From: Promethearchaeota archaeon | GTDB lineage: Archaea > Asgardarchaeota > Lokiarchaeia > Sigyniarchaeales > SOKP01 | Assembly: GCA_030599585.1 (NCBI GenBank) | Contig: JAUVNS010000007.1 | Location: 64,001 to 128,000, forward strand | Length of the DNA stretch: 64,000 bases | Direction of reading: 5' to 3' | Shown: piece by piece, positions 11,919 to 58,636 of the stretch | Layout of the letters: each line of letters begins with the position of its first letter | How positions within the stretch are numbered: the stretch's first letter is position 1 | Translations under genes and position numbers: made by a program | Notes under the pieces: generated by a model | The model's database searches: none | What the model was told of the DNA's origin: nothing | What the model saw: only the letters and a program-made list of their open reading frames with translations

Positions 11919-11991
11919 ATGTGTTGTATGGTGCTTCCATTTCTTCAGCTGAATTCTCGTTTTTTTAACTCAGCTTCATCAGTTAACACAT
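11919..11991 (-). ncRNA. Eukaryote-like SECIS element 1 (3' UTR of hdrA-mvhD)
   Basis: Minus strand reads AUGUGUU-aacug-AUGA-A-GCUGAGUU-aaaaaaacgag-AAUUCAGC-U-GA-agaa-AUGG-aagca-CCAU-ac-AACACAU. This gives helix I (7 bp), the AUGA/GA core, helix II and an A-rich loop, starting a few nt after the mvhD TAA. Confidence 0.9.
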
Positions 11992-45981: not shown

Positions 45982-46491
45982 ATGAACGAAGAACCGCCAA
46001 GGCCTAGTGGATTACCAGCGGGTTCTATAGCACCTATCTTTGATACTAAAGACATCTACGGAAAAGAAATGAATTTAGAAAACTTGCTTGAAGAATACGA
46101 CGGAGTGCTAATTGATTTCTTTAGAGGAAATTGGTGAAGTCATTGCAAAAAACATTTAACGCTACTAACCGAAAAGATATCCGAATTTAAGAATAGGAAC
46201 ATTAAACTTATGTCAATAGCAAGCGATAGCGAAAGACTTTTAAAGAAATTTAAAGAAGAAAATAATTTTGCTGTTGATATGATCTCTGATCGTGGAGCTA
46301 AAATTGCAAAAGAATACGATGTTTACTGGTTTGCTCCCGGTGGAGGAGGAACTTTGAACGTAAAACAAGCGGTGCCAAGCAAATTTCTGATAAATAAGGA
46401 AAGAAAAATCTTATGGACATACATTGGTAAAGATAAAACCGACAGGCCTTCTATAAAAATGATGACAGACATCATAGACGAAAAAATTTAG
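45982..46491 (+). CDS. Peroxiredoxin-like (AhpC/TSA, thioredoxin fold) selenoprotein with UxxC, 169 aa
   Basis: From ATG 45982: MNEEPPRPSGLPAGSIAPIFDTKDIYG...LIDFFRGNW-U-SHCKKHL. TGA at 46135-46137 (codon 52) is in frame with track ORF 46210..46491. TAG stop, SECIS directly downstream. Confidence 0.92.
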
Positions 46492-46498
46492 ATTTTAG

Positions 46499-46571
46499 AA
46501 TCCCTTAAGAATGAATCGTGCGTGAAAATTTTAGACAAACGAGGACGAACCTCGCAAAGGTTTATGGGATT
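46499..46571 (+). ncRNA. Eukaryote-like SECIS element 2 (3' UTR of the UxxC Prx-like gene)
   Basis: AAUCCCuuaaga-AUGA-A-UCGUgcGU-gaaaauuuuag-ACaaACGA-G-GA-cg-AACCU-cgcaa-AGGUU-uau-GGGAUU; helix II has two mismatches. Confidence 0.82.
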
Positions 46572-56328: not shown

Positions 56329-56390
56329 ATAGAAACCCGAGCAGGGTAGTCCTCAAACGTCTAGATTTTATACGCTTGAATCATTCAATT
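56329..56390 (-). ncRNA. Eukaryote-like SECIS element 3 (3' UTR of the UxxU Prx-like gene)
   Basis: Minus strand reads aauuga-AUGA-U-UCAAGCGU-auaaaaucuag-ACGUUUGA-G-GA-cu-ACCC-ugcuc-GGGU-uucuau. Helix II is a full 8 bp; helix I is weak. Confidence 0.88.
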
Positions 56391-56403
56391 TTTATTTTTG
56401 AAA

Positions 56404-56910
56404 TTAATTTGGTAAATGAGTATCAATCGCATTTAGAATATCTTCAATTTTTGGTCTATCTGTTTTAGTACCGATATACCGCCACACGATTTTACCATTT
56501 GGATCTATTAAGTAAGTTGAAGGGATTGCGAGCTCGCTTTTAATTATATCGTAATCTATTGGAATTCCAAAGACATTATAATCTTTTGAAATCTTTGCTT
56601 GTTCGTCTGCTATAATTGAGAACTTATAGTTTTCCTTATCGGCAAGCTTTTTTAAAGGTCTTACTCTATCCGTTCCGATCGATACAAATTTTACATTTCT
56701 CATTTCAATGTCAGAAATATTACTATTTAGTTTTTTTAGTTGTTTCTTTCAATAGTGTCACCAAGCACCTCGGAAAAAATCGATTAATAATCCACGATAT
56801 TCTTGAAGAATGTCTGTTAAATTAATTTTTTCTCCATGAATATCAACACTATCAATCATTGGTGCCTTGCTTCCTGTCTTTAAACCTTTTTCAGAATTTG
56901 AGACAGTCAT
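56404..56910 (-). CDS. Peroxiredoxin-like (AhpC/TSA) selenoprotein with UxxU motif, 168 aa
   Basis: From ATG 56910: MTVSNSEKGLKTGSKAPMIDSVDIHG...LIDFFRGAW-U-HY-U-KKQL. TGA at 56758-56760 and 56749-56751 are in frame with track ORF 56404..56703. TAA stop, SECIS downstream. Confidence 0.92.
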
Positions 56911-57043: not shown

Positions 57044-58636
57044 GTGATTAAAAAAATGGTAGATAAAGTTATTCCATTTCTTATTAATGTAGGGGAAGTT
57101 ATTCCCACTCGCTCAAAAGCTACATTATTAGATGAGATGGCGATGGCATTAAATGAATGTATAAACATTTATGGAAAAACAATTAAGAAGTTAGGAAAAA
57201 TTAATAGAATATCACTATGCTTTTGGCCCGTTCGTTTAATTCCTTTAAGCGATACTCGTGCTTGTGTTTGTAGTTATTTACTAAATAAACAAGAAAAATT
57301 AAGCGTAGGAAAATTCTCCCAAACACCTCCCACTCCTGATAATCTTATTCAAGGGGCAGATCCTACATCTTTTTTAAATTCATTAGCGTCGTATAATGCT
57401 ACTTACTTAAAAAAAACAAAAAATTATAAGAGAGGTACGGTTATTCAAGAAGCTCTATTTAGTTCTAGTGAAGTTGATTATTTTAAGAACTTTTTCTTAA
57501 ATCAATACAATGTTAGTTCATTTAGCGAGCCATATTTTCTTTTAGAAGGTGGGCCAATACCAAAAAGCATTAACCAAGCAAAAATTGTCCCAGAGGTATT
57601 TGAGTTCATCTCGCAAGCGGATGTTAAACTATTAGATAATTATGGTCAAAATATCATAAAATTGTGTGATAGATGGATTCAGAGAGGTGCTCAAGATACA
57701 GACAAATTAAGAACAAAGAAAGTTGACACCAGCGAAGAAGAAAAACAACTAGCTCAAATTACGAGAGAACTTGAGACTGAAAAAGCACGAAAAATAGAAT
57801 CTACGCCAGAGGAATTAGTCAAAAGTGGAAAATATAAGATTGGTGATAAGACTGGCGACTTTTACAATAATATTAGTGCTATTAAAAATACCGTCGATCG
57901 TCTTAAGAATGCTAACAACAAAAACGACCTATTTGCAGTGGAAGAAGCATTGAAAGATCTGAACATAAAATACAAGGATTTAGGAAACACTATTAGCCGA
58001 TATCAAACTGAAATTACTCAAATAAAGAAAAATATTCAACGAGAATTAAACGATTTAGAAAGATCGAAGCAACAGAGAATAAGAGAGCTTGAAAGAAAAA
58101 AATCTGAGATAGAACGTAAAATTCAAACAAAACACAGTGAGCTAAGTGGAGATCTTACTTCTGCCGAAGATACTGTAGCAAGAATCAAACAGGAAAAACA
58201 ATCTTGCTTAGATAATATCGATAGAATCAAGGATATAGAGATGACTAGCGTTCAGAACTTTTTTAATACTTATTCAATCGAAGTAAGAACTAAAGATGTT
58301 GTGGTAGGAGTGCCTATGTTCGTTTTCTATTTTATCGATCCGAATACGCGTCGAACTACTGAAAGGGCTCCCGTGTTACCTATACTAATCGAAAATGGAA
58401 AAATCCACCGAACAAAAGTGACCGATTCATTTAGAAGTAATTTACGGAATCTCATGAATAAAGACAATGCTATGATAAATTTAGTTGACAACGGAGGAGA
58501 AACGGGGAATTTAATGGAGATTAAAAATATAGATTCTAAACTCGAGGATGCAATTAATGACTTACGAATAAGGAAAGTTTTAAGTAAGAAAGAAGCTGAA
58601 AGAGATAAAGATATTATATATAATCTAGTATGGTAA
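57044..58636 (+). CDS. Hypothetical protein with long central coiled coil
   Basis: 530-aa ORF with an E/K/Q-rich heptad region (about aa 220-400) flanked by globular segments. Confidence 0.75.
   Translation: MIKKMVDKVIPFLINVGEVIPTRSKATLLDEMAMALNECINIYGKTIKKLGKINRISLCFWPVRLIPLSDTRACVCSYLLNKQEKLSVGKFSQTPPTPDNLIQGADPTSFLNSLASYNATYLKKTKNYKRGTVIQEALFSSSEVDYFKNFFLNQYNVSSFSEPYFLLEGGPIPKSINQAKIVPEVFEFISQADVKLLDNYGQNIIKLCDRWIQRGAQDTDKLRTKKVDTSEEEKQLAQITRELETEKARKIESTPEELVKSGKYKIGDKTGDFYNNISAIKNTVDRLKNANNKNDLFAVEEALKDLNIKYKDLGNTISRYQTEITQIKKNIQRELNDLERSKQQRIRELERKKSEIERKIQTKHSELSGDLTSAEDTVARIKQEKQSCLDNIDRIKDIEMTSVQNFFNTYSIEVRTKDVVVGVPMFVFYFIDPNTRRTTERAPVLPILIENGKIHRTKVTDSFRSNLRNLMNKDNAMINLVDNGGETGNLMEIKNIDSKLEDAINDLRIRKVLSKKEAERDKDIIYNLVW

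Follow-up and report, generated by a model that had tools for sequence, protein, structure and literature searches.

A Lokiarchaeia prxL gene with two in-frame UGAs: predicted double selenocysteine insertion from a single lokiSECIS that probably includes a 3' side hairpin

The window, i.e. the whole 64,000-nucleotide stretch of DNA analysed here, carries a prxL gene whose product is probably a PrxL.1-type selenoprotein, in which a single lokiSECIS in the 3' UTR directs Sec insertion at the two UGAs and which acts as a Trx/TlpA-like oxidoreductase rather than as a classical peroxiredoxin (Table 1). A first-pass annotation, made from the sequence alone, had proposed a double-Sec protein of Trx/Prx fold served by one 3' SECIS in an archaeal host, and this proposal is supported by the conservation of both TGAs, the SECIS and a full set of genes for the Sec machinery. 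As that annotation had stated, the frame is open from the ATG at 56910 to the TAA at 56404 (minus strand) apart from the UxxU motif; with TGA read as U it comprises 168 codons and yields a 168-aa protein, in which U51 and U54, lying in the box FFRGAW-U-HY-U, correspond to the only two TGAs. The prediction that standard annotation would give a 99-aa fragment was likewise borne out, as translation with Table 11 recovered only the ORF 56404-56703. The full-length protein matched AhpC-TSA in Pfam (PF00578, E 4e-25). Four ORFs of at least 120 aa in the genome contain exactly two TGAs spaced as UxxU, and the focal one alone is followed by a SECIS match. Comparison with sequencing runs, carried out with contigs throughout, revealed a public-run contig, possibly from the source sample, that is identical to the focal region at 801/801 nt, and an RNA-run contig of a relative which covers both TGAs at a depth of 2, shows no change at either codon among the 40 differences listed, with 65 others unlisted, and is not evidence of expression.

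Table 1. Positions in the window of the prxL gene, its paralogue and their SECIS elements.
Feature	Position	Strand	Description
prxL gene (PrxL.1 type)	56404..56910	-	168 aa, AhpC-TSA/redoxin fold, 0 Cys
TGA, predicted Sec51 (first redox-box site, putative nucleophile)	56758..56760	-	TGA in 74/74 family redox boxes read
TGA, predicted Sec54 (second, putative resolving site)	56749..56751	-	Cys in UxxC family members
Type I lokiSECIS core	56350..56384	-	AUGA, 9-bp stem, 11-nt A-rich loop ending AG, GA
3' side hairpin	56335..56347	-	ACCC-UGCUC-GGGU, 2 nt past SECIS GA; counterpart in nearly all Lokiarchaeia SECIS examined
Paralogous prxL (PrxL.2 type, UxxC)	45982..46491	+	169 aa, 44% identical to focal protein
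Paralogue SECIS	46499..46569 (ends approximate)	+	lower stem AUCCC/GGGAU, core at 46511, side hairpin with CGCAA loop

Both TGAs were invariant in five same-genus orthologues (79-90% identity) and in four others from the same family (55-63%); scored as TGA or TGY, the two sites, which had been expected to carry Sec or Cys in homologues, thus read TGA/TGA in the orthologues of nine other genomes. The closest orthologues are labelled as Promethearchaeota/Promethearchaeia MAGs, that is, Lokiarchaeia. When codons 1-50, which precede the first TGA, were compared with four orthologues, 33 synonymous and 30 non-synonymous differences were found, so this part diverges in a coding-type manner like the remainder of prxL. 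Among 74 redox boxes of the family, taken from Lokiarchaeia loci, TGA was invariably present at the first site, and the second was either TGA or Cys; the members collected comprised 33 UxxU and 41 UxxC proteins, a proportion that does not reflect their frequency because the set was enriched for two-TGA loci. The paralogue in the window had been described as UxxC at the matching position, and its box indeed reads W-U-SH-C and is accompanied by its own SECIS core, weaker than the focal one with 6/9 pairs. Tandem UxxC and UxxU prxL genes, in most cases with a SECIS core each, were observed at seven loci of another genus of the same family (L067, L068, L069, L073, L074, L057 and L065). Synteny with the neighbours of the focal prxL (SDRs and a 530-aa hypothetical) was seen in close orthologues only, and these neighbours gave no functional clue; the 530-aa protein (57044-58636, plus strand) is encoded divergently from prxL, has no Pfam match and is 91-96% identical at close orthologue loci. 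In protein collections, entry P0003 corresponds to a 99-aa fragment of an orthologue of the focal protein, and P0002, P0005 and P0008 from public protein sets are PrxL homologues from Loki in which the Sec positions read Trp (e.g. WWIYW; in P0002 at both TGAs), apparently through genetic-code-4 misannotation.

The SECIS-like hairpin reported about 20 nt beyond the stop proved to be a canonical lokiSECIS: its AUGA lies at 56384-56381, 19 nt past the TAA, its GA at 56351-56350, the stem is paired at 9/9 positions, and the element agrees with every lokiSECIS criterion set out by Mariotti et al. (2016; PMC4989117). By itself the hairpin is modest evidence, since a loose genome-wide SECIS scan returned 16 matches as compared with 4-10 in shuffled sequences; its fold z-score was -1.6, and Rfam gave no match to the SECIS region. 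Alignment of 48 prxL elements revealed two-sided changes at 9/9 pairs of the upper stem, with 91% of the cells forming a pair.

The Sec machinery named in the first-pass annotation (SelD, SepSecS, EFSec and tRNA-Sec) was found as a set in the genome, together with a PSTK-like gene. SepSecS gave a match with E 1e-112, the PSTK-like (E 5e-45) and EFSec-like (E 2e-68) genes scored below the curated cutoffs but were the clear best matches, and there are two SelD genes, each with an in-frame TGA in a G-U motif. Using same-genus tRNA-Sec genes as BLASTN queries, the tRNA-Sec gene was located outside the window at G000:C28:16776-16926 (plus strand), where it adjoins SepSecS and lies ∼4 kb from EFSec; Rfam RF01852, ARAGORN and a custom anticodon-arm scan detected no tRNA-Sec in the genome. 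The gene is interrupted by two introns, of 28 nt within the anticodon loop and of 30 nt within the T loop, and its spliced form adopts a cloverleaf fold having UCA as anticodon along with a long variable arm; a single T-arm intron is mentioned for Loki tRNA-Sec in a review (PMC9499178), and several same-genus genomes possess an intron-less copy. Further selenoprotein genes with a SECIS in the genome are HdrA, VhuD and VhuU, one pair being located in the window (14436-12000, minus strand), where HdrA with three in-frame TGAs overlaps or adjoins VhuD with two; they share one lokiSECIS at 11979, itself bearing an AUGG/CCAU side hairpin, as in the known Loki arrangement. Elsewhere in the genome, a short frame with adjacent U-U codons and a downstream lokiSECIS (G000:C40 near 117301, plus strand) is probably a multi-Sec VhuU of the kind described in the text of Mariotti et al. 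(2016).

The focal protein is a further orthologue in a family that was published in 2016, with a catalogue following in 2024, and the double-Sec inference itself already appears in the texts of these studies. A new or very surprising case is not supported, because a Loki PrxL.1 with two Sec, a lokiSECIS and the idea of a diselenide were described by Mariotti et al. (2016; PMC4989117). According to the text of that study, Loki PrxL.2 contains one Sec and PrxL.1 two, in place of both redox-box Cys, other Cys are absent from every PrxL, and a SelL-like diselenide was suggested for PrxL.1. The focal protein shares with this PrxL.1 the two Sec sites, the lack of any other Cys, the 9-bp/11-nt lokiSECIS and a one-Sec paralogue in the genome, and it combines PF00578 and a CxxC-type box having Sec at both positions with a lokiSECIS and a Lokiarchaeia host that has the Sec machinery; it matches PrxL.1 as described in that text. 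Huang et al. (2024; PMC11227280) reported that 43% of the Asgard archaea that use Sec encode Prx-like selenoproteins, and their supplement comprises 8 GAWXHYX and 37 RGNWXSHC sequences; the exact focal sequence is absent from that set, and their entry GCA_019894885_U_3 reads identical to our locus L004, which is 83% identical to the focal protein and falls with it into a common 99/97 clade, indicating orthology with a published Asgard two-Sec PrxL. The family is listed as UxxC or UxxU in a 2026 review (PMC13188914), and UxxU has been noted among bacterial Prx-like thiol:disulfide oxidoreductase selenoproteins (PMC2398784), for which UxxC and UxxU are both given in PMC13188914. The additions made here are the second-site Cys/Sec switching, a UxxU homologue in strain MK-D1 and a possibly undescribed SECIS side hairpin. 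The bacterial proteins belong to the same PF00578 family and have the same motif options, and they would use a SECIS within the ORF; unlike theirs, the focal SECIS is eukaryote-like and situated in the 3' UTR.

In an unrooted tree of 72 proteins, calculated with both sites coded as Cys and with bootstrap values not fully settled, UxxU and UxxC proteins were interleaved, and 11 changes were needed, of which at least six were forced by well-supported branches. Six or more Cys/Sec swaps thus appear, as judged from the tree, to have occurred at the second prxL site, which is evolutionarily labile; gains of the second Sec are inseparable from losses as the tree is unrooted. These data bear on the membership in selenoprotein L (SELENOL) that had been implied for the focal protein. 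A SELENOL origin, in which UxxU would descend from an ancestor common to both, would agree with the shared combination of UxxU, a Prx-like Trx fold and one SECIS (PMC13134290; PMC4989117), two UGAs being served by a single 3' SECIS in both cases, and with a weak match to the SelL-related model NF040769 (E 6e-11). This match, however, reached only 42.4 bits against a cutoff of 120, was confined to the N-terminal half and was surpassed by that of the UxxC paralogue (51 bits), the PF13911 score was below cutoff as well (19.5 versus 27), and the interleaved archaeal tree with its forced changes indicates that UxxU arises repeatedly inside the archaeal UxxC family; the focal SECIS, moreover, is archaeal and, according to the texts of PMC4989117 and PMC11227280, operates without SBP2. 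We therefore consider a SELENOL origin very improbable, and, as the protein fails the SelL-family models, its UxxU is most plausibly a case of convergence with SelL, as judged from family models and the archaeal tree. Still harder to credit is the explanation that the second TGA, or each of the two, is a genuine stop, or that the gene is a pseudogene or an assembly artefact, so that at most a 99-aa C-terminal fragment would be produced. Standard gene calls do yield the 99-aa ORF, and two close UGAs may be decoded inefficiently, but nine other genomes carry both TGAs unchanged, coding-type conservation extends upstream of them, the covarying SECIS is intact, and the Sec machinery is complete. 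From this comparative evidence we infer that both UGAs are recoded as Sec.

The predicted structure of the protein showed a Trx/Prx fold (pLDDT 93.8), for which BCP/PrxQ peroxiredoxins (3hjp and 2cx3; Bcp4/PrxQ) were the best fold matches with a TM-score of 0.83, closely followed by ResA/TlpA (4nmu and 1st9) with 0.74. In an alignment with BCP 2cx3, U54 stood opposite the peroxidatic Cys and U51 opposite the Thr/Ser position of PxxxT/SxxC (Ser in 2cx3), Arg47 occupied the place of the Pro of this motif, and Pro130 aligned with the Prx catalytic Arg as well as with the Pro of ResA PLPTS; 72/72 family members share R47, P130, R152 and P153. Alternatively, the selenoprotein could chiefly be a peroxidase protecting an anaerobe from oxygen, in which a selenolate reduces H2O2 or ROOH, giving a selenenic acid that the second Sec converts into a diselenide. 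The top fold matches and the positions of U54 and U51 favour such a function, the invariant Arg47 and Arg152 could supply positive charge, and selenolates react with peroxides without much activation. Nevertheless, despite the fold shared with BCP/PrxQ, the protein lacks PxxxT/SxxC (RGAW-U-HY-U instead, with Arg for the Pro of the motif) and the catalytic Arg (replaced by Pro130), and the Prx-like proteins are classed as being without typical Prx features by Mariotti et al. (2016; PMC4989117), which makes a mainly peroxidatic role unlikely. With ResA/TlpA it has in common the fold, the ResA-like Pro and a CxxC-type box, differing by Sec at both sites, and since a Trx-type Pro stands in place of the Prx catalytic Arg, a Trx-like oxidoreductase is the most likely assignment. 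According to the mechanism that we propose for such an oxidoreductase, the archaeal Sep-tRNA pathway (tRNA-Sec, PSTK, SepSecS, SelD and EFSec) would decode both UGAs, with one eukaryote-like lokiSECIS, that of the 3' UTR, guiding the two insertions, and the UxxU box would be presented at the start of the helix 52-63 of the Trx fold. Sec51 would most likely attack a disulfide or an oxidized substrate and Sec54 would resolve the adduct, giving a diselenide that should be intramolecular because the protein contains no other Cys or Sec; the presumed Se-Se bond would then be re-reduced by a low-potential system of the cell, for which a TrxR-like gene (E 4e-95, below the curated cutoff) and a ferredoxin:thioredoxin-reductase-like gene (E 1.5e-19) of the genome are candidates, and the function would be redox maintenance.

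The lokiSECIS is depicted as one stem-loop in the text of PMC4989117 and with one apical loop only in a review (PMC9499178), and the text of Huang et al. (2024; PMC11227280) states that no conserved nucleotides surround the SECIS core. The focal SECIS probably extends past this published model by a 3' side hairpin. Hairpins of at least 4 bp starting 1-6 nt after the GA were present at 92/97 distinct type I cores of Lokiarchaeia selenoprotein loci, sequences that are related to each other, namely at 50/55 prxL, 23/23 vhuD and 19/19 other selenoprotein loci, as compared with 32%, 9% and 28%, respectively, in shuffled sequences, and GC or GU lies in the loop or at it in nearly every case. The arms read ACCY/RGGU in prxL, AUGG/CCAU in one vhuD family, AGGA/UCCU in a vhuU and CCGU/ACGG in both selD type II elements, and thus vary between families in a compensatory manner; joining a vhuD arm with a prxL arm in either direction left a hairpin in 10-20% of the combinations versus 77-85% within a family. 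The hairpin was also found after Sec-vhuD genes of two other Lokiarchaeia families, including that of MK-D1. A lower stem closing a three-way junction is usual (scores of 7.8-9.7 versus 4.3-5.3 shuffled) and is weak in the focal SECIS. Within prxL, two-sided changes affected just 1/4 pairs of the side hairpin, and because of this thin covariation the support for it rests on the flips between families; RNAalifold on the 48 prxL elements predicted the upper stem only, without side hairpin or lower stem. The short motif occurs 33 times in the genome, just two of them after a core, and is therefore meaningless on its own. A search of another Asgard class, that of genome G165, returned mostly TGA-free VhuD and no type I cores, so that the survey describes Lokiarchaeia. 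The two nearby selD paralogues (G000:C34:187468 and 190381) both contain Sec, and in each the type II SECIS is followed by its side hairpin.

We tentatively propose, with somewhat less than even confidence, that the Lokiarchaeia SECIS is a three-way junction consisting of the lower stem, the AUGA/GA core with its 9-bp upper stem, and the 3' side hairpin with a GC- or GU-containing loop, and that this hairpin is a functional recognition element, possibly a dock for a factor substituting for SBP2 in Asgard archaea, and that it was lost toward the eukaryotic SECIS. A role as terminator is not favoured, as the hairpin was located 1-6 nt past the GA in each of the selenoprotein families examined, and mostly within the lower stem that closes the junction. 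Asgard archaea read a eukaryote-like SECIS in the absence of SBP2, and a second hairpin, if conserved, would be a tangible candidate for the recognition element that is missing from this picture; SECIS searches could be made sharper by including it. If the proposal is true, functional tests of lokiSECIS, one example of which did not work in M. maripaludis (PMC11881835), need the full element. Neither the side hairpin nor the repeated Cys/Sec switching is mentioned in the main text, figures aside, of Mariotti et al. (2016) or Huang et al. (2024).

A UxxU PrxL homologue was also found in Promethearchaeum syntrophicum MK-D1 (L136:1501-2007, corresponding to about 3,623,103-3,623,609 of NZ_CP042905.2). 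It is 34% identical to the focal protein, its box reads F-U-SH-U, and its 3' element is a longer stem-loop with a non-canonical core spacing and a side hairpin with a UGC loop. This homologue makes a putative natural archaeal diselenide directly testable in a cultured organism.
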